From Actinomycetota bacterium (lineage in GTDB: Bacteria > Actinomycetota > UBA4738 > HRBIN12): a stretch of 64,000 nucleotides of DNA. The stretch covers positions 11 to 64,010 of the forward strand of contig JBGGNG010000152.1 in NCBI GenBank assembly GCA_041287635.1, in the 5' to 3' direction. Every line of letters starts with the position of its first letter. Within the stretch, counting starts at the first letter, position 1. Shown here piece after piece: positions 43,549-59,773 of the stretch. Below the pieces are notes generated by a model. The model did not search any database and had not been told where the DNA came from. It saw only the letters and a list, made by a program, of their open reading frames with translations. The translations under genes and the position numbers were made by a program.

Positions 43549-43624
43549 TGGTGGAGACGACCGGGATCGAACCGGCGACCTCCGGCTTGCAAAGCCGGCG
43601 CTCTTCCAACTGAGCTACGTCCCC
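43549..43624 (-). tRNA. tRNA-Ala (anticodon TGC)
   Basis: GGGGACGTAGCTCAGTTGGAAGAGCGCCGGCTTTGCAAGCCGGAGGTCGCCGGTTCGATCCCGGTCGTCTCCACCA. Cloverleaf folds with a G3:U70 pair and an encoded CCA. Confidence 0.95.
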
Positions 43625-44377: not shown

Positions 44378-46411
44378 TCACGCTCCGGATTCGACCGCCG
44401 AGAGCGGGAACACCCCAAGACACCGCTCCGCGCCTTCCCCGTAGGTCACGACCTCGGCGTGCAGGGCCACGCACGACGTGGCGACGATCGGCCCGATCTC
44501 GCGCATCCAGCCCTCGAGCTCGTGCCACCGGGCCGTCCCGCGGCCGACGGGGTATGCGAGCGAGAGATGCGGGATCCAACCATCGAGCGCGACCCGGTCG
44601 CTCTCCGCGATCGGCAGCCCCGCCTCGGCGGATGCGGAGCGCAGGTCCGACATCGCTGAGAGGATCGCCGGCCCATCGAGTCGGACGATCGGGATGCCGT
44701 CTTCGCGAAGGATCTCGAGCGCGGTCGCGTGGAGCTCGAGCCCGCCGTGCGACGCCGCCCACGCCTGCACGACCTCGACGATCCGCCGCTCGTCCTCGCC
44801 GGTGAGGGGCGAGCCCTGCGCTCCGAACGCCTTCAGGGTGGCGTGCCCGGACGGGGCTGCGCATCGCACCCCTATGCGATCGAGCGTCTCACCCTGCCAA
44901 CCGGTGAACGCCTGCGCCAGGGCACCGACCGGTCGCACGATCACGCAGGCGGTGCCCACGGCCTCGCGCACCTTCCACTCGTCGACGATGACCGGGGACT
45001 CGGACGGAGCAAGCCGATCCTCGATCTCGAGCCACTGCACGAGGCCTTCGTGGTTCAGTCCGATCTCGACACGCGCATCGCCGCCGGCGGTGGTGAAGGT
45101 CCCACGCACCGGCGTCTCGGCCTCAACCGACTCCACCGCCAGGTCCCCCGAGCGCGCCACCAGGCGACCCGCCTGAGCGGCGCGCCGTTCGTAGGATTCG
45201 TCGGACCCCACGTTGTCGGCGAACAGCGCGCGGGCCTCGGAGTCGCTCCACGACGACAAGAGGGCCGCGGCTCTCGTCGCACCCTCTGCGAGCGACGCGG
45301 CTTCCACCTCGCGTCGAGGTCCCAGCTCGTTGCGATCCGCGAGCACCTCGAGCGCCTCGATGCAGGCGCCGTGCATGTTCCCGTACGTGACGTTCGAGAG
45401 ACCGATCACGCCGACGTCGTGTTGGGGCAGCCAACGCATGTGCGAGCCGTACCCCGGCAGCCCCCCGCTGTGGCCGACGGATGTGCCGAGCCGTTCGTCG
45501 ATCCGCACGCCCAGGCCGATGCCGTAGCCGGTCGCGCTCACTCGCGACGATCCGCTCGGCGACGGGCGGTACCGGGTCACCTCGTCCACCCGGCGGAGCT
45601 GCTGCATCTCTCGGCGCGCCCATCGGGGCAGCGGGCCGTCATCGGCCTCGTCGCGCGGAGGCCACGCGTCGAGGAAGAACCCGACCCAGCGCGCGAGATC
45701 TCGTACGGTCGTCCACAGGCCGCCCATGGGGGCGATGGTGCCGTCGCCGAGGGGTTCCCCCTCGTGCGTCCACACACCGTCCTGCAGACGGTAGGGCTCC
45801 GCCACGACGGCGGAGCCGGGCCGCTCCCACGTCGTCGACGTCATGCCGAGCGGTTCGAGCAGTGATCGGACGACGAGGTTTTGCACGCGCTCACCGGCCA
45901 CGCGCTCGATCACCCGACCGACCAGGCCCCAACCGAGGTTCGAGTACTCGAACCTCGTACCCGGGGTCCATGCGAAGACCGCCCCCGCGTCGATCAGCGC
46001 GTCCATCGCCCCCGGCGAGAGATCCAGGTGCCGATCCGCCCACTCGTCGTCGGTCGGGAGTCCCGCTTCCATCGAGACGAGGTGCCGCACGGTGATCGGC
46101 GGACCGTCCGACGTCGGCCCCCGCCAGGTCGAGAGCTCGGGGACGTGCACGGACACCGGGTCGTCCAGCCGCAGCCGGCCGTCGACCACGAGCATCATCA
46201 GCGCGGCCCCTGTGAAGCTCTTGGTCATCGACGCGATGCGGAACACGCTGTCGGCGTCGGGCGTTGCCGGCTCGTCGAGGCTCAGCGTGCCGTCGCCGCC
46301 CGAGCCCACGAGCTCCCCGCCTCGCACGAGGCCCCACGCGACACCGGGGATGCGATCGCGTCGCATCCTTCGCGCGAACACCTCTGCGAGCGCTCGATCA
46401 CCCGTCGCCAT
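44378..46411 (-). CDS. Beta-lactamase-family serine hydrolase fused to a C-terminal 2H-phosphoesterase-like domain
   Basis: 677 aa. SxxK motif (ASMTKSF) in the N-terminal half. The C-terminal region has two Hx(T/S)x motifs (GHATLKAF, PHLSLAYP). Confidence 0.8.
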   Translation of the reverse strand: MATGDRALAEVFARRMRRDRIPGVAWGLVRGGELVGSGGDGTLSLDEPATPDADSVFRIASMTKSFTGAALMMLVVDGRLRLDDPVSVHVPELSTWRGPTSDGPPITVRHLVSMEAGLPTDDEWADRHLDLSPGAMDALIDAGAVFAWTPGTRFEYSNLGWGLVGRVIERVAGERVQNLVVRSLLEPLGMTSTTWERPGSAVVAEPYRLQDGVWTHEGEPLGDGTIAPMGGLWTTVRDLARWVGFFLDAWPPRDEADDGPLPRWARREMQQLRRVDEVTRYRPSPSGSSRVSATGYGIGLGVRIDERLGTSVGHSGGLPGYGSHMRWLPQHDVGVIGLSNVTYGNMHGACIEALEVLADRNELGPRREVEAASLAEGATRAAALLSSWSDSEARALFADNVGSDESYERRAAQAGRLVARSGDLAVESVEAETPVRGTFTTAGGDARVEIGLNHEGLVQWLEIEDRLAPSESPVIVDEWKVREAVGTACVIVRPVGALAQAFTGWQGETLDRIGVRCAAPSGHATLKAFGAQGSPLTGEDERRIVEVVQAWAASHGGLELHATALEILREDGIPIVRLDGPAILSAMSDLRSASAEAGLPIAESDRVALDGWIPHLSLAYPVGRGTARWHELEGWMREIGPIVATSCVALHAEVVTYGEGAERCLGVFPLSAVESGA

Positions 46412-46465: not shown

Positions 46466-47113
46466 ATGGAGTTCGACGGGCACATCCTCGGCGCGTCGTT
46501 CGCCTCGGGCGATCGGATCGTGGTGGGTCGGTGGCTCCGCTCCCCGTTCGGCCCCTTCGCCGACGTGATGTGGTGCGGGCCCGACGGTCGACGCGTGCTG
46601 CTCGCCCCCGACGGGCGAGTGCGGGACTTCCTCGCCGGTCACTACGCGTTCGACGAGCTCCACGTCGATCGCGTCACGGCCGAACGAACGGGAACCGGCG
46701 CGATCGGGGTCTCGGCCGGGCCGGTGCGGCTGACCGTGCGCCCGAGCGGGCCCGGGTGGGCGTCACGCCTGCTCGCCCTGCGGCCGCAGGGACTCCGCAC
46801 TGCGAGGGCCTGGATCGACCTCGAGGACCGAGTGCTCCGGCCGCTCGTGCGACCGCTGTTCGCGGCCGCCAACGTGTGGACCTCCGGCGTGACCCTCGCA
46901 GGCGCTCGAGAGCGGTACGCGATCCACGACTTCCGACACGCGGAGGCGAACGCCTCGGTCGACGGCGTCGATCTCGGACCCACGGCTCCCTGTGCGGCGG
47001 CGGGATTCGGGTTCAGCGAGTTCCCGACGACCCCCGCGGTCGTGCGCGTGACGTCGATGTTCGAGAGAGTCGCGAAGACGGAGGCCGTCTCAGGCGGACC
47101 CCGCGGTCGCTGA
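46466..47113 (+). CDS. Hypothetical protein
   Basis: 215 aa from MEFDGHILG. No recognisable motif. Confidence 0.45.
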   Translation: MEFDGHILGASFASGDRIVVGRWLRSPFGPFADVMWCGPDGRRVLLAPDGRVRDFLAGHYAFDELHVDRVTAERTGTGAIGVSAGPVRLTVRPSGPGWASRLLALRPQGLRTARAWIDLEDRVLRPLVRPLFAAANVWTSGVTLAGARERYAIHDFRHAEANASVDGVDLGPTAPCAAAGFGFSEFPTTPAVVRVTSMFERVAKTEAVSGGPRGR

Positions 47114-47713
47114 CGGACTGTTCGTCGGGGTCGGCGACATGCCGGGGCGCCACTGTTCGACGGCGCCGTCGTCGGGAGCACGGTCGAGGCAGGTCCGCCG
47201 GCAGACCTCGCCGGTGAAGCTCGTCATCGCCCACCAGAAGTACGAGGTGCGGAAGCGTCCGAACTCGAGGGTCTTGATAGGCACCGCGACCGACACGCCG
47301 TCGGACGACTTGCGCCGGACCTTCACGTTGCGCAGGAACAGGTCGCGGCGGTCGCGGCGGTCGCGCCAGAGGGAGGCATGCAGGTCGGAGCCCGTGCTGC
47401 GGACGACCACGAAGTACTCGGCGTCCTCGCCCCCTGCAGTGTCGAGGAAGACGTAGCCGTTGCCCCGGTCCCAGATCGACGCGGCCGTCCAATCAGCGAA
47501 CGCGATCACCGTGACCTCGGTGCCGCCCTCGTGCTCAAGGCGGACCCTGCGCACGTCGAGCAGCCCCCGGGTGTCGTTGGGGTCGTTGACGTCGCTGTGG
47601 AACGACGGCGCGGCCAGCGCGACCAGGGCCATCGCCACGATCAGGGCCGCGACGAGGAACGGCACGACCGAGCGCAACGGGGTGGCGGCCCACCGGCCGC
47701 GAGTCGGGGTCAC
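47090..47713 (-). CDS. Secreted or membrane-anchored hypothetical protein (last gene of the Mau-like cluster)
   Basis: 207 aa. The GTG start overlaps the MauE-like stop (GTGA). N-terminal anchor (VVPFLVAALIVAMALVALAAP), then a beta-rich domain. Confidence 0.5.
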   Translation of the reverse strand: MTPTRGRWAATPLRSVVPFLVAALIVAMALVALAAPSFHSDVNDPNDTRGLLDVRRVRLEHEGGTEVTVIAFADWTAASIWDRGNGYVFLDTAGGEDAEYFVVVRSTGSDLHASLWRDRRDRRDLFLRNVKVRRKSSDGVSVAVPIKTLEFGRFRTSYFWWAMTSFTGEVCRRTCLDRAPDDGAVEQWRPGMSPTPTNSPSATAGSA

Positions 47714-48834
47714 GCGGGCCTCCCCCGGCCCAGCCACCTGATCGCCGTCCACGCGGTGAAGCCTGCCACGCCGAGCCCCGCGAAGACCAACACCATCGGC
47801 AAGAACTCCCCGGAGGTGGGCCATCCCGGCCACGAGACAACCGGCTCCGGGGCGGGACGAAGCGCGACGACGATCGCGAGCGCCGCGAGCGCCGCGTTGC
47901 GTACCAGCAGGGCCCCCGGCTTCACCGCCTCGCGACCGCCGAAGCACCCGCACGGCACCTGCGGACCGAAGCGACGCCACGCGCGCACCGCTTCCGCGGT
48001 GAATACGACCAACAGCACGAGTGCCCAGACGCCCGCCGCCCGTGTCCACCCCGACGCGACCAGGATCGGCACGAGGGCCTCCGCGGTCGGCACGGCGAAC
48101 GTGGCGACGCTCTCGACACCGTGCGGGAGCCCGTGCTCATCGAGCGTGCCCCGCCACTCTCGGAGATCGACCACCTTCGACGTCGCCGCCCATCCGAACG
48201 CGATGGCGAGGACCGCGGTCGCGAGCGAGGCCCACCCGTCGTCGGCTCCGATCGCGAGCGCGACCGACACCATGGCGACGATGACGAGCACGCCGCCGTT
48301 CGCGAGGTTCCGTCGGCCCTCCGGCGATCCGGCCAGGCGGTCGACCAGCCGTTGGGACTCCTGCTGGGTGGAGACGCCGGCGGACCTGGCCGCCGAGAGA
48401 CCCCGCACGAGCCCGAAGGGCGCGACGATGAGCGCCCCCACCGCGGGATCACCCGAGGCGAGCGCGGCGAGCGTCACGACGACGAGGGTGCCGTGGGAGA
48501 CGTAGGTGAAGAACCCGATGCCGAGACCGGCGCCGTACAGGGTCGCAGCGATCGGCCAGGAGAAGAACTCACGCCACCAATCAGGGACCTGCCGTCGGAG
48601 CTGCGGCACCGATGCCGTCACGCGCGGAAGCTCTCCCACCGCGTAGACGATCGCCGTGATCGCGATCACCAGCGCGCCGGCGCGGCCCCAGGGCGCCTCG
48701 AGCAGCGCCCCGGCGACGCCCAGCGCGGCGCCGAAGAGCGCGGCGGTGACCGTCGCGCCGGCGGCGTGCAGGGCCAGGGCGACGGCCCACCGCGTGCGCC
48801 CCCCGTACACGACGGGGGTGATGGTCTCCACCAT
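47710..48834 (-). CDS. Double-length membrane protein with a C-terminal MauE/DoxX-type domain
   Basis: 374 aa, polytopic. The C-terminal half carries the PCGCFGG motif I associate with MauE-family proteins. The N-terminal half is an extra, unassigned TM domain. Confidence 0.7.
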   Translation of the reverse strand: MVETITPVVYGGRTRWAVALALHAAGATVTAALFGAALGVAGALLEAPWGRAGALVIAITAIVYAVGELPRVTASVPQLRRQVPDWWREFFSWPIAATLYGAGLGIGFFTYVSHGTLVVVTLAALASGDPAVGALIVAPFGLVRGLSAARSAGVSTQQESQRLVDRLAGSPEGRRNLANGGVLVIVAMVSVALAIGADDGWASLATAVLAIAFGWAATSKVVDLREWRGTLDEHGLPHGVESVATFAVPTAEALVPILVASGWTRAAGVWALVLLVVFTAEAVRAWRRFGPQVPCGCFGGREAVKPGALLVRNAALAALAIVVALRPAPEPVVSWPGWPTSGEFLPMVLVFAGLGVAGFTAWTAIRWLGRGRPA

Positions 48835-48843
48835 CGACAGCCC

Positions 48844-48948
48844 TCAGGGGCCGTAGAGCGCCGACCACCCGGCGATCGCCGACGCGGCGGCGAGCACGAG
48901 GAGCAGCGACGTCGCGAGCGCGTCGCCGCCGAACGGATCGGTCAACAC
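48844..48948 (-). CDS. Micro-ORF encoding a 34-aa single-TM peptide
   Basis: VLTDPFGGDALATSLLLVLAAASAIAGWSALYGP. The GTG overlaps the MauA-like stop and the stop lies 9 nt before the MauE-like ATG. 33 of 34 codons end in G/C. Confidence 0.4.
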   Translation of the reverse strand: MLTDPFGGDALATSLLLVLAAASAIAGWSALYGP

Positions 48949-49478
48949 CTCTTGTTGAGCTCCCGGTAGGTGATACAGAAGACCTTCAACGGCCGCGGGC
49001 AGTATCCCCGCACCGCATAGTCCCCGTTGATGCGGATGTCCGAACGGGAGCAGCAGTCCTGGATGTGTCGGAGCCGCCCCGAGCAGCACCGTGTCCAACC
49101 GCCCCCGTACCGCGGTGACCCGGTGAACGGGTACGCCTCTGGCACGACCTCCTCGCACGTCTTCCGCCGGGACTGGTTGCGAGGATCGACGAACTTGTCC
49201 CCGGCGTCGTCGACCGGGTACCCGTATTGGGGATGCATCGGGTAGCCGTAGCGGTCCGTGCGGGACAGCGGCGAGTACGGGTGGGGGCAGGATCCCGTCG
49301 TGTAGGTGTGCCCGCAGATGTGATACGCCTGCGCACGATCGGGCGCGATCGCGGTGGCCACCAGGCCCCCGCCGGCGAGCGCCACCACCCCCCGGCCGAC
49401 GCGGCCGAGGAAGCTGCGGCGGCTGGTGCGCGTGGCGAGCGATCGCTCCGCCCGTTCGATCGAGGTCAGCTTGCCCAC
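48942..49478 (-). CDS. Tat-exported Cys-rich protein resembling the methylamine/aralkylamine dehydrogenase light chain (MauA-like)
   Basis: 178 aa. Twin-arginine signal (TSRRSFLGRVG...AQA). The mature part has 10 Cys and a single Trp (GGGWTRCCSG...DCCSRSD), resembling the W-x2-C...DCC core of MADH light chains. Confidence 0.65.
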   Translation of the reverse strand: MGKLTSIERAERSLATRTSRRSFLGRVGRGVVALAGGGLVATAIAPDRAQAYHICGHTYTTGSCPHPYSPLSRTDRYGYPMHPQYGYPVDDAGDKFVDPRNQSRRKTCEEVVPEAYPFTGSPRYGGGWTRCCSGRLRHIQDCCSRSDIRINGDYAVRGYCPRPLKVFCITYRELNKRC

Positions 49479-49975
49479 TGCTCGCCATCCTCCGTGATCC
49501 GTCGGTTGGCGGTGTCCACGAGACCCTCGACCTGTTCGAGATTGTTCACGGTTCCCTTCGCGCGCACGACCCCATGCTCATCGAGCACGACGACGAACGG
49601 GGTGCCGGGGACCGCGAGCGCTCGCTCGGCTTCGGTGTCGTGCACGACGATCGGCTCCAGCCGTCCGGCAGCGGCGGCGGCCGGCACCCCCGGCGTGACC
49701 TCGAGGCAGACGACGCACGTCTCCGAGGCGAACAGCACGAGGCGTGGCCGACCCGCACCGCCGAGCACCACCGCCCCTCCGTCGGCGTCGTGCGCCGAGA
49801 GCGCGGGCAGCGGCTCGCCGAGCGGGGGCCCCTCGTCGTCGATCTCGAGGGCGCCTCGCGGACCGAGCCGCAGATGCAAGGTGCCGACCTGCCGGGCGAG
49901 GGCGATCACCACGATGCAGAGCACGACCACGAGCAGCCACAGCACGACGAACGCCAGCGCCCACCACCCGGTCAT
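49466..49975 (-). CDS. MauD-like membrane-anchored thiol:disulfide oxidoreductase (TlpA/thioredoxin fold)
   Basis: 169 aa. N-terminal TM helix, ALARQVGTLHLRLGPRGAL, a CVVC active site and GVVRAKGTVNNLEQVEGL, which match my recollection of MauD. Confidence 0.75.
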   Translation of the reverse strand: MTGWWALAFVVLWLLVVVLCIVVIALARQVGTLHLRLGPRGALEIDDEGPPLGEPLPALSAHDADGGAVVLGGAGRPRLVLFASETCVVCLEVTPGVPAAAAAGRLEPIVVHDTEAERALAVPGTPFVVVLDEHGVVRAKGTVNNLEQVEGLVDTANRRITEDGEQWAS

Positions 49976-50011
49976 CCGGCCATCACCGTTCGACCTGCGC
50001 TTCCCACGGCC

Positions 50012-50572
50012 TCAGCGCATCGTCCAGGTCGGCTGCTTCGTCTCATCGAGGAACTGTACGAACGGCGAACCGTCGCCGGCCAGTCCGACGATCGCCCGGA
50101 GCTCGCCCGCCCGATCGAGCAGGCGGAGCACCGGCGAGCCCTCGGCGGCCAGGCCGAGGCGGACCCGTACCTTGCCCGCGTGGTCGTAGAGACCGAGCGT
50201 CGGGGACCCTTGCTCCGCGAGGGCGTAGACCTGGGAGAGCTCGCCGTCGGCCACCTGCATCCCCATCGTGGGTGACGCCTCGGGTGCGAGACCGAACTTG
50301 GCCCGGATGCGCCCGTTCTTGTCGCCGAACGCAAGGCTCGCACTGCCGTCGCTCGACAGTCCCACCGTCGCCCGCACCTTGCCGTTCTCGTCACCCACCG
50401 CGAGCCCGGCGGCGCCGTCGGCGGACAGGCCGAACCGCATGCGCACCTGCCCGTCCGGCGACAGCAGCGAGAAGAACGGGTCCTCGTCGTTCGAGAGTCC
50501 GATGCGCACCCTGACCCGGCCGTCATCATCGACGACCTCGAACTCACCCGCTTGCACGACCCGCTTCTTCAT
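50012..50572 (-). CDS. Repeat protein with 7-8 tandem units of about 22 aa (predicted beta-hairpin repeats), no signal peptide
   Basis: 186 aa from MKKRVVQ (GGAG RBS). The recurring unit is [DN]G-x-[VIL]R-x-x-[VIFL]GL-x-x-[DE]G. First gene of the Mau-like cluster. Confidence 0.6.
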   Translation of the reverse strand: MKKRVVQAGEFEVVDDDGRVRVRIGLSNDEDPFFSLLSPDGQVRMRFGLSADGAAGLAVGDENGKVRATVGLSSDGSASLAFGDKNGRIRAKFGLAPEASPTMGMQVADGELSQVYALAEQGSPTLGLYDHAGKVRVRLGLAAEGSPVLRLLDRAGELRAIVGLAGDGSPFVQFLDETKQPTWTMR

Positions 50573-50806
50573 GTCACTCCAGGCCCGCTCGGTGGGGAGG
50601 CGACGATCCGGCGGATGCCGGGTTCGCGGTGCGCGGCGGACGCGTCTGCGTATGGTCGCCCGTGCGAGCCCTCGGCTCAAGCACATGGGAAGACGCGGAC
50701 GGACCCAGGAAGTGAGAAACCGCCGGAACCCGGGGGCCCCAGCGGTCTCTCATGGCGGACGATACGGCCGGTGAGCCCGGGGCGTCAAACCCGAGCGGGG
50801 TTCTTG

Positions 50807-51919
50807 TCACACTTTCCCGACCGACTCTCGGCGCAGCGTCGTCTCGGCGAGGCGATCGGCGCGAGGAGCCACCCCGATGCCCGGTCCCACGGGCACCGCC
50901 ATCGTGCCGTCGAGGGCCATCACGAACGGCTCGGTGAGGTCGTCGACGAAGTACCGAGCGCTCGCGCTGGTGTCGCCGGGCAGCGTGAACCCCGGCATCG
51001 CCGCGAGGGCGAGGTTCTGCGCCCGTCCGACCCCGGTCTCGAGCATGCCTCCGCACCAGACCGGCACCCCGGCCGCCCGACACACGTCGTGCACCCGCCG
51101 CGCCTCGACGATGCCCCCCACCCGCCCCTGCTTGATGTTCACGATGCGACAGCTGCCCAGCTCGAGCGCCGCGACGGCGTCGGAGGCCGACCTGATCGAC
51201 TCGTCGAGACACAGGTCCGTGCGGACCGCGCGCTGTAGCTCGGCGTGGCGCACGAGGTCGGTGTGATGCAGGGGCTGCTCGATCATCAGCAGGTCGTAGG
51301 CGTCCAGCGCCCGGAACACGTCCTGGTCCTCGATCGTGTACGCCGCATTGGCGTCCACGCTGAGAGCGATGTCGGGATGCGCGGCTCGCACCGCGCCCAC
51401 ACGCTCGACGTCGATGCCGGGCTCGATCTTGAGCTTGATCCGGCGGTACCCCTCGGCGAGGTAGCCATCGACCTGATCGAGCAGCGCCCCGGTGGTGTCG
51501 GTGATGCCGATCGACACCCCGCAGGCCACCCGGTCGCGATCGGCACCCAGCCACTGCGCCAGCGAGACACCGTCCGCGCGGAGCCGAGCGTCGACCACGG
51601 CGTCGATCAACGCGGCCTTGGCCATCGGGTTCCCACGGACGTGCCCGAGGAGGCGGTCGAGATCGTCGATCGCGACCTTATCGGCTCGCAGGAGCGCAGG
51701 GGCCAGATGGTCGCGGATCACGAGCCAAGCGCCTTCGTTGAACTCCTCGCTGTAGCCGGGCTCGACGTCGGCGACGCACTCCCCCCACCCTTCCCCCTCG
51801 TCGGTCTCGACCCGGACGAGGATGCACTCCTTCGCGGTCGACGTCCCGAAGCTCGTGCGGAACGGTCGCACCAACGGCAACCCGATCAGGCGCAGCTCGA
51901 CGTTGCGCACGATGCTCAT
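50807..51919 (-). CDS. Enolase-superfamily o-succinylbenzoate synthase / N-succinylamino-acid racemase
   Basis: 370 aa with LIGLPLVRPFRTSFGT...GWGEC and metal-ligand and KxK-type regions typical of the OSBS/NSAR family. Confidence 0.85.
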   Translation of the reverse strand: MSIVRNVELRLIGLPLVRPFRTSFGTSTAKECILVRVETDEGEGWGECVADVEPGYSEEFNEGAWLVIRDHLAPALLRADKVAIDDLDRLLGHVRGNPMAKAALIDAVVDARLRADGVSLAQWLGADRDRVACGVSIGITDTTGALLDQVDGYLAEGYRRIKLKIEPGIDVERVGAVRAAHPDIALSVDANAAYTIEDQDVFRALDAYDLLMIEQPLHHTDLVRHAELQRAVRTDLCLDESIRSASDAVAALELGSCRIVNIKQGRVGGIVEARRVHDVCRAAGVPVWCGGMLETGVGRAQNLALAAMPGFTLPGDTSASARYFVDDLTEPFVMALDGTMAVPVGPGIGVAPRADRLAETTLRRESVGKV

Positions 51920-53073: not shown

Positions 53074-53096
53074 GGGAGGAGCCCTCCTTCCGGGAG

Positions 53097-53171
53097 TGGG
53101 CCTGGATGGACTTGAACCATCGACCTCTTCCTTATCAGGGAAGCGCTCTAACCGGGCTGAGCTACAGGCCC
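53097..53171 (-). tRNA. tRNA-Ile (anticodon GAT)
   Basis: GGGCCTGTAGCTCAGCCCGGTTAGAGCGCTTCCCTGATAAGGAAGAGGTCGATGGTTCAAGTCCATCCAGGCCCA. Cloverleaf folds. CCA is not encoded. Confidence 0.9.

Positions 53172-55161: not shown

Positions 55162-55164
<3 letters not shown>
55141..55164. terminator. Perfect 24-nt palindrome TAGGGCGGGGGCGCCCCCGCCCTA between convergent genes
   Basis: Read directly. Its last 3 nt are the gyrA stop codon (CTA on the plus strand). Confidence 0.55.

Positions 55165-57612
<2,448 letters not shown>

Positions 57613-57664: not shown

Positions 57665-59773
<2,109 letters not shown>

Follow-up and report, generated by a model that had tools for sequence, protein, structure and literature searches.

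Proteins of the MauE family have been described as general DsbB-like oxidases; those replacing DsbB in Escherichia coli carry a CXC motif followed by F-G and Lys/Glu residues in helices 1 and 2, and MauA, the light chain of methylamine dehydrogenase (MADH), is found in only 10.2% of MauE-bearing species (bioRxiv 10.64898/2026.03.05.709764). In Streptomyces, candidate clusters for ribosomally synthesized and posttranslationally modified peptides (RiPPs) detected with decRiPPter contain mauE and mauD beside genes for precursors with at least 8 Cys residues and no other mau genes (PMC7794033). A 2026 review of 119 prokaryotic selenoprotein families names no MauF, MauE, or other mau protein, and few of the bacterial selenoproteins it covers are membrane embedded, YeeE/YedE and a rhodanese/DsbD fusion being given (PMC13188914). 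Here we describe a gene cluster within a 64,000-nucleotide stretch of DNA from an Actinomycetota bacterium (contig JBGGNG010000152.1), hereafter called the window, which encodes homologs of MauF, MauE, and MauD next to a Cys-rich protein with a predicted twin-arginine translocation (Tat) leader, which we call the client. We consider it probable that this operon specifies a dedicated extracytoplasmic Mau-type thiol-oxidation machine and its client, and that the machine includes a 412-residue selenoprotein in which a MauF domain with selenocysteine (Sec) is joined to a MauE domain.

The cluster consists of six open reading frames (ORFs) that are all on the minus strand, run in the same direction, and span positions 47090-50572, with each junction being either an overlap or a gap of 36 nt or less. 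From the upstream end, they encode a repeat protein, a MauD-like protein, the client, a hydrophobic micro-ORF, a 374-amino-acid (aa) membrane protein, and a downstream protein. Their span, spacing, and common direction agree with a preliminary description of the window that had been made from the sequence alone. The sole gap, of 36 nt, separates the repeat and MauD-like genes, and the overlaps at successive junctions are 13, 7, and 4 nt. A scan of one genome per species with the Cys-rich protein provided 192 relatives, and the loci of the best 80 of these, nearly all from uncultured Actinomycetota or Actinomycetes metagenome-assembled genomes (MAGs), were compared. Conservation of gene order across Actinomycetota, a point raised in the preliminary description, was borne out: the order of the MauD, Cys-rich, MauF-MauE, and downstream protein genes was retained in approximately 78 of the 80 loci, which belong to different species. 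This gene cluster is a real, conserved module that is found mainly in uncultured soil actinobacteria.

The MauD-like protein (169 aa, 49466..49975, minus strand) is anchored by a transmembrane segment, has a CVVC site, and is encoded by the gene that overlaps the client gene by 13 nt. It matched TIGR02661 with an E value of 1.4e-22 and 80.1 bits, which is under the equivalog cutoff of 188.6, and we therefore use the label MauD-like. In a BLASTP comparison with MauD from the canonical mau cluster of Methylobacterium (locus L091), it was 33% identical (E value, 7e-26) over an alignment that included the anchor, and its CxxC was invariant in 83 related loci. The 374-aa membrane ORF (47710-48834, minus strand) contains a PCGCFG motif and matched PF07291 over residues 204-325 with an E value of 1.5e-22 and 80.7 bits, well above the cutoff of 27. 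Related loci showed no variation in the CGC-F motif of this domain or in a Lys and a Glu located within helices 1 and 2, and by homology the C-terminal half of the 374-aa protein is a DsbB-like MauE domain. The identities proposed for these two proteins in the preliminary description were thus retained.

A tblastn search that covered the 64-kb window and the flanking sequences of the approximately 80 related loci gave no match to MauB, MauG, amicyanin, MauJ, MauL, MauM, or MauN, and the Pfam lists of genes neighboring the cluster in those loci included neither MauB (PF06433) nor MauG. A motif check found no CxxCH heme motif in any cluster protein. The preliminary description had likewise reported no heavy chain, MauG, or amicyanin and no heme motif in the cluster proteins and had considered such an orphan module remarkable. 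The lack of a nearby heavy chain stands, but orphan MauE proteins are common (bioRxiv 10.64898/2026.03.05.709764), and there is a Streptomyces precedent for the gene arrangement (PMC7794033).

The MauF domain and its in-frame UGA codon

The micro-ORF (33 or 34 codons, 48844-48948 including its TGA, minus strand) and the 374-aa ORF share a reading frame and are separated by a single TGA (48844..48846). When the N-terminal domain obtained by joining them was aligned to canonical MauF with hhalign, the probability was 99.1%, with an E value of 1.3e-18 over 194 columns. A tblastn search with MauF gave one unedited high-scoring segment pair that ran from 48870 to 48340 directly through the TGA (E value, 2e-13), placing the stop on Cys86 of MauF, within the motif WSPCGYS. 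These alignments identify a MauF homolog in the N-terminal half of the 374-aa protein and assign the micro-ORF to it as its first transmembrane helix (TM1). In all loci, a GTG or ATG start codon lies 25 to 34 codons 5' of the TGA and overlaps the stop of the Cys-rich gene. Since frame, start, and MauF homology are shared across the TGA, we treat the region as one MauF-MauE gene of 412 codons (47710..48948, minus strand) that begins with the GTG at 48946-48948, has the TGA as codon 35, and places the MauE CGC motif at residues 333-335 of its product. The preliminary description was correct that a 34-codon transmembrane micro-ORF exists but took it for a gene of its own, which in the usual sense it is not. 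It had missed both the MauF identity of the N-terminal half of the 374-aa protein and the joining of the micro-ORF to it through a conserved, probably Sec-encoding UGA.

Several observations concern the annotation of this domain. Canonical MauF (L091, 4599-5456), a membrane protein of 285 aa, is conserved and has a WSPCG motif; neither Pfam nor NCBIfam has a model for MauF, NCBIfam has none for the MauF-MauE protein, and among the papers listed by a literature search for "MauF" there were only unrelated abbreviations. DsbD_2 (PF13386) was considered as the identity of the N-terminal domain and set aside in favor of the direct comparison with MauF, the match being weak (E value, 0.0015 to 0.0017) and present in 1 of 15 members. 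Within the close relatives of the window (L006 to L012, L016, and L017), the TM1 segment preceding the UGA is 9 residues longer than in the majority of the clade (34 versus 25 codons). Public gene calls split MauF-MauE into proteins of 34 aa and 374 aa in every genome seen, and the same division is found in two contigs that encode the exact protein, L089 (10531-10635 and 10645-11769) and L090. If the UGA is read through, this division is a systematic misannotation.

The TGA at codon 35 was present in all 78 genome loci. It was also present in each of the 120 JGI metagenome contigs that were retrieved with a pattern allowing TGN at this position, and none of them had TGY or TGG. A comparison was provided by a sister clade, larger as well as more divergent, which came to light when 1.8 billion representative proteins were searched with a profile and homologs were then collected in a second round. 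It comprises at least 2,845 Cys-rich proteins of approximately 190 aa, including some from Candidatus Solirubrobacter pratensis and Capillimicrobium. The MauF-like proteins of this clade have Cys opposite the UGA (AWSPCGFSMVET; SPCGFSMVET). The start of one of them, a protein of 478 aa (...AAGVTGAWSPCGFSMVETLAP...), aligns with the window sequence composed of AIAGWSALYGP, the TGA, and GLSMVETITP. Readthrough is predicted to place the candidate Sec, within the motif GP-U-GLSMVET, in the context ...LYGP-U-GLSMVETITPVVYGGR, and amino acid conservation runs on both sides of the UGA. One database protein (P0139) has Trp at this position; it appears to derive from an assembly with many indels or from a call made with another genetic code and was set aside. 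The interval between the TGA and the ATG of the 374-aa ORF is always 9 nt and encodes G-[L/F/M]-S, with third-position entropies of 1.67 and 1.17 bits and invariant second positions.

Immediately 3' of the UGA lies a SECIS-like (Sec insertion sequence-like) element made up of two hairpins (48800..48835, minus strand). Hairpin 1 (48820-48835), GAUGGU-GGAG-ACCAUC, has 6 bp and a predicted stability of -8.5 kcal/mol and shows no variation, not even at synonymous sites. Hairpin 2 (48800-48818), CCCCCGU-loop-ACGGGGG, has 7 bp, a loop of CGUGU or GUC, and a predicted stability of -13.7 kcal/mol, with compensatory changes at three of its pairs. For the hairpins together, 96.8% of cells were paired, and none of 500 shuffles matched the observed covariation score. 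Third-position entropy was close to 0 at codons +3, +5, +7, +10, and +14 after the UGA, compared to 1.0 to 1.8 bits elsewhere in the gene, and the two loop codons of hairpin 2 varied freely. Both hairpins are absent from the homologs with a Cys codon. The rules for bacterial SECIS (bSECIS) elements call for a loop of 3 to 9 nt with a G within its first two positions (PMC13188914), and hairpin 2, with its 7-bp stem located 32 nt from the UGA, agrees with them. Taken together, the conserved UGA, its alignment with Cys, and the conserved RNA structure make it probable that this codon specifies Sec.

The principal alternative, which we regard as rather unlikely, is that the TGA is a true stop and that a MauF-like gene has been split into a TM1 peptide of 25 to 34 residues and a 374-aa protein translated from the ATG 9 nt further on, with no Sec involved. 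A number of our results favor it and weigh against Sec insertion. The invariant UGAGG, located 7 nt before this ATG, can be read as a stop codon combined with a Shine-Dalgarno sequence, its GAGG possibly serving as the ribosome-binding site, and hairpin 1 encloses and would sequester the ATG, as translational coupling would lead one to expect. Stop usage does not discriminate between the two possibilities, since TGA predominates among the stop codons of these genomes, and gene callers annotate two genes. The metagenome scan contained no match to a form of this clade with a Cys codon (GP-TGY-G). Hairpin 1 is 14 nt from the UGA, slightly under the usual range of 16 to 37 nt, and the sequence surrounding the TGA matched no SECIS family in Rfam. 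Finally, no selA, selB, selC, or selD was found in 1.66 Mb made up of the window together with metagenome contigs and locus flanks; this search used tblastn with E. coli SelA, SelB, and SelD probes together with ARAGORN and, for the genomes, covered flanks only.

Conversely, a split at this point would eliminate precisely the single Cys that is conserved in MauF while every other MauF motif remains under selection, and the 9-nt spacer is fixed in length yet varies in the manner of codons. Hairpin 2 is 25 to 45 nt inside the downstream coding region and covaries, and translational coupling requires no such covariation. If TM1 were no longer covalently attached, the remaining helices would also be expected to have the opposite topology to those of MauF. 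Besides Sec, a further possibility is the SelB-dependent insertion of Cys at the UGA by a tRNA-Sec-like tRNA-Cys.

The Cys-rich client and its leader

The client (178 aa, 48942..49478, minus strand) is composed of a leader (residues 1-51) and a mature domain of 127 residues. The leader contains TSRRSFLG, a hydrophobic stretch, and AQA, and it scored 15.3 bits with TIGR01409, for which the cutoff is 16.7. When full precursors of the client and MauA were aligned with hhalign, the probability was 97.2% (E value, 3.3e-11), and the similarity was confined to 38 leader columns. Within these, the n-regions of the client and MauA share hydrophobic residues at -13 and -6 together with E, R, A, and R at -12, -8, -5, and -3, respectively, and in both families T-S-R-R follows. 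A regular expression for this leader motif had 85 matches among 3.3 million residues from six-frame translation of all the fetched DNA, each within a client gene; this specificity indicates that the likeness of the leaders exceeds that of a generic Tat motif. By these comparisons the Tat leader of the client is homologous to that of MauA, which suggests that the MauF/E/D set recognizes or handles the client through the leader.

A link between the client and these enzymes is also provided by the sister clade. There, the gene for a MauE-MauD fusion is followed by that for the Cys-rich protein and then by that for a MauF-like protein of 480 to 500 aa, and in some members single ORFs join MauE, MauD, and the Cys-rich protein (P0132, P0391, P0430, and P0489, of 440 to 480 aa, and L087, 8001-9335). 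The fusion of these three proteins points to a functional link of the client with the enzymes. In the triple fusions, the twin-arginine leader is located in the middle of the protein.

The mature domain has 10 invariant Cys residues, an invariant GGGW, and invariant His53, His57, and His66, and its invariant segments are H-x-C-G-H...C-P-H-P at the N terminus, GGGW-x-RCC, and D-CC-S. The 720 close homologs of the protein, which are approximately 70 to 90% identical, are all annotated as hypothetical, and none has a Pfam domain. Sequence searches of the PDB, one made with the client sequence itself and one with a profile, gave no match and no chain of MADH, aromatic amine dehydrogenase (AADH), or quinohemoprotein amine dehydrogenase (QHNDH). 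An AlphaFold 2 model based on 115 aligned sequences, with the sister clade represented, had a mean predicted local distance difference test (pLDDT) score of 91.8 and a predicted template modeling score of 0.83; an earlier AlphaFold run on 25 close homologs had a pLDDT score of 45 and was discarded as shallow. The model predicts that the N-terminal half is irregular and that the domain has one helix and a sheet of three strands. In a Foldseek search of the PDB, the best E value was 0.43, with a template modeling score of approximately 0.18, and the best 50 of the 182 matches included no MADH or AADH chain. Judged by sequence comparison and the predicted model, the mature domain is a new family with a predicted fold unseen in the PDB and is not a light chain carrying tryptophan tryptophylquinone (TTQ). 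The family is very conserved and widespread in soil actinobacteria, and its thousands of sequences carry no annotation.

The client might instead be a secreted, disulfide-rich bacteriocin or RiPP-like product, or a metal-binding one, with the Mau genes as its private folding enzymes. This explanation, which overlaps with the thiol-oxidation machine proposed here, seems improbable to us. In its favor are the Streptomyces clusters with mauE and mauD beside precursors having at least 8 Cys residues (PMC7794033) and the invariant His- and Cys-containing segment at the N terminus of the mature client. However, identities of 70 to 90% over approximately 190 species and a fixed synteny beside gyrA fit a housekeeping function better than an arms race, and Pfam and NCBIfam identified no immunity, transporter, or protease gene in the operon.

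The preliminary description had presented the Tat protein as MauA-like, with either an alternative protein-derived cofactor or a purely disulfide-rich redox role. Part of this held up: the SRRSFLG leader, the 10 Cys residues, and the single Trp are all present, and with one Trp in the whole protein the Trp-Trp cross-link of TTQ cannot form, as it had stated. The likeness of its mature domain to the light chain of MADH did not. Of the three family models that it named, PF07291 matched its protein above the cutoff, TIGR02661 matched below the cutoff, and PF02975, the light-chain model, had no match in the Cys-rich protein at an E value of 0.1 or less. TIGR02659 touched only leader residues 6-35 (E value, 0.013), and local, permissive, and global hhalign comparisons of the mature client with mature MauA were not significant (E value, 0.08). 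We therefore rejected the client as a MauA light chain on the basis of the Pfam, profile-profile, and fold searches together with its one Trp and its 10 rather than 12 Cys residues.

A diverged MADH-type light chain that bears another protein-derived quinone, such as a Cys-Trp type, and operates without a heavy chain accordingly appears very improbable. It would account for the MauA-type leader and for MauF, MauE, and MauD homologs adjacent to a light-chain candidate. The client also has the invariant Trp in GGGW-x-RCC followed by DCC, and its best local match to MauA, LRHIQDCCS on LIAYRDCCG (E value, 0.08), is this DCC segment, while the permissive alignment sets VFC of the client on IWC of MauA, with an invariant Phe opposite W108 of MauA. 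These matches count against our assignment of the client to a new family, as does the consideration that Foldseek can miss small, irregular, disulfide-rich folds, so that a very remote kinship with MauA is conceivable. Nevertheless, PF02975 is absent, TIGR02659 is limited to the leader, no MADH, AADH, or QHNDH chain was among the PDB matches listed, and the operon has no MauG, radical-SAM, flavoprotein, or heme gene by Pfam, NCBIfam, tblastn, and motif checks and so no enzyme to form such a cofactor. An ordinary amine or methylamine dehydrogenase split between loci, with MauB and MauG elsewhere in the genome, is conceivable in that the search covered the window and flanks of 6 to 10 kb, but it is extremely improbable, given that the client has neither the MauA mature domain nor a second Trp and that none of the approximately 80 related loci, in most of which the cluster lies beside gyrB-gyrA, has PF06433 or MauG nearby.

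Accessory proteins and genomic neighborhood

The cluster begins with the repeat protein (186 aa, 50012..50572, minus strand), which has no Cys residues and, as reported previously, no signal peptide in its translation. It is built of beta-hairpin-like repeats of approximately 21 to 23 residues. In about 90% of related loci its gene precedes that of the MauD-like protein, with 59 to 100% identity and a mean column identity of 75%. Pfam and NCBIfam contained no match to it. A PDB profile match to engineered OspA single-layer beta-sheet repeats (E value, 1.8e-6), the only one obtained, was judged to be repeat mimicry rather than homology to OspA and suggests a run of beta-hairpins, and a relationship to MauJ was considered and not found. 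Its absence from four loci (L002, L003, L079, and L082), which have a different context and only the last four genes of the cluster, marks it as an accessory member. We would guess that it acts as a cytoplasmic partner of the client precursor.

The downstream protein (207 aa, 47090..47713, minus strand) has a start codon that overlaps the MauF-MauE stop as GTGA. The preliminary description had it as secreted, and its N-terminal anchor is consistent with a protein that is anchored or secreted. It contains conserved DPNDTRG, WDRG, and CxxxC-D motifs, with one CxxxC, and its gene follows the fusion gene in nearly all complete loci, with 34 to 94% identity. No Pfam, NCBIfam, or PDB profile match was obtained for it, and on comparison neither it nor the repeat protein proved related to the C-terminal domain that the MauF-like protein has in the sister clade.

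A promoter-like site, TTGACG-18-TATCGT (50759..50788, minus strand), is located 5' of the repeat-protein gene. It is the sole sigma-70-like match in 46800-51000, where shuffled sequences average 0.2, and on this consensus match it is a possible start of the operon. In nearly all 80 loci the gene order extends further and consists of a GNAT-like gene, an enolase-superfamily gene, and the genes for the repeat, MauD-like, Cys-rich, membrane, and downstream proteins. A gene for a DUF3352 protein of approximately 580 to 630 aa lies between the enolase-superfamily and repeat genes in L001 (7073-8812) and L004 (6810-8711); the window does not have it. In related genomes the cluster is usually a few kilobases from gyrB-gyrA, and in the window gyrA (55162-57612) and gyrB (57665-59614), both on the minus strand, are just upstream of it. 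The cluster is flanked on either side by tRNA-Ile (53096-53171) and tRNA-Ala (43549-43624), also on the minus strand, and the fetched related loci contain tRNA-Ile 76 times and tRNA-Ala 59 times. The gyr genes and the recurrent tRNAs indicate a stable, origin-proximal housekeeping neighborhood. Downstream of the cluster, a 677-aa ORF (44378-46411, minus strand) encodes a beta-lactamase-fold N-terminal half (PF00144 according to the corresponding public gene call) followed by a long C-terminal extension, and its conservation is limited to the closest relatives. Among the loci that carry the cluster, L047 (CAWJVX010000007.1) is labeled an uncultured Gemmatimonadales MAG, for which a binning error or horizontal transfer is possible.

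Proposed function and comparison with known systems

In the mechanism that we propose, the client precursor would be exported by the Tat pathway, and the membrane-anchored MauD homolog would use its CxxC to introduce or shuffle the five disulfides of the client outside the cytoplasmic membrane. The MauE domain, through its CGC motif, would then reoxidize the MauD homolog and pass the electrons to quinone, as in DsbB, with the MauF domain supplying to this relay one redox residue, Sec or Cys, at the end of TM1. The hairpins just 3' of the UGA would direct Sec decoding. The n-region of the leader may be the handle by which the client is held, either by the Mau set or by a cytoplasmic partner such as the repeat protein. 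With somewhat less assurance than for this operon, we lean toward the broader view that MauF (Sec) plus MauE is a new family of membrane selenoproteins and that MauF/E/D constitutes a leader-guided maturation system for at least two unrelated clients, MauA and the 10-Cys family. If the UGA does encode Sec, a family would be added to the bacterial selenoproteome, and MauF would gain its first functional clue, a single redox-active residue. The shared leader predicts that MauF/E/D recognize their clients through the MauA-type n-region.

Of the systems described previously, the mau cluster (mauFBEDACJGLMN; Methylobacterium L091) shares the most features with this operon: homologs of MauF, MauE, and MauD, a client with the extended MauA-type Tat leader, and adjacent, translationally coupled genes for MauD and the client, with the canonical E-D-client (E-D-A) order being kept in the sister clade. 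It differs in that the searched DNA of the operon has no MauB, MauG, amicyanin, MauJ, MauL, MauM, or MauN, in that the client does not belong to PF02975, has 10 Cys residues instead of 12 and a single Trp, and is predicted to have a different fold, and in that MauF is fused to MauE and has a UGA in place of its Cys codon. The general MauE oxidases share with the operon the CXC-F-G motif, the Lys and Glu residues, the lack of MauA, and a thioredoxin-fold partner; they are stand-alone generalists, whereas this MauE lies behind a MauF domain and beside one specific Cys-rich client (bioRxiv 10.64898/2026.03.05.709764). Like known bacterial selenoproteins, the MauF-MauE protein has a conserved in-frame UGA, Cys homologs, a 3' stem-loop, and a probable redox Cys, but its candidate Sec is at the end of a transmembrane helix, and the families listed include no Mau protein (PMC13188914). 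The decRiPPter clusters also place mauE and mauD homologs next to a gene for a Cys-rich product (PMC7794033). The client described here is a folded domain of 127 residues with a Tat leader, and the operon adds the MauF (UGA) domain, the repeat protein, and a further secreted protein. Orphan MauE (bioRxiv 10.64898/2026.03.05.709764) and the occurrence of mauE and mauD beside Cys-rich precursors (PMC7794033) were thus already known, and what this locus adds to them is a MauA-type leader on an unrelated, conserved client family, a MauF-MauE fusion, and a candidate selenocysteine.

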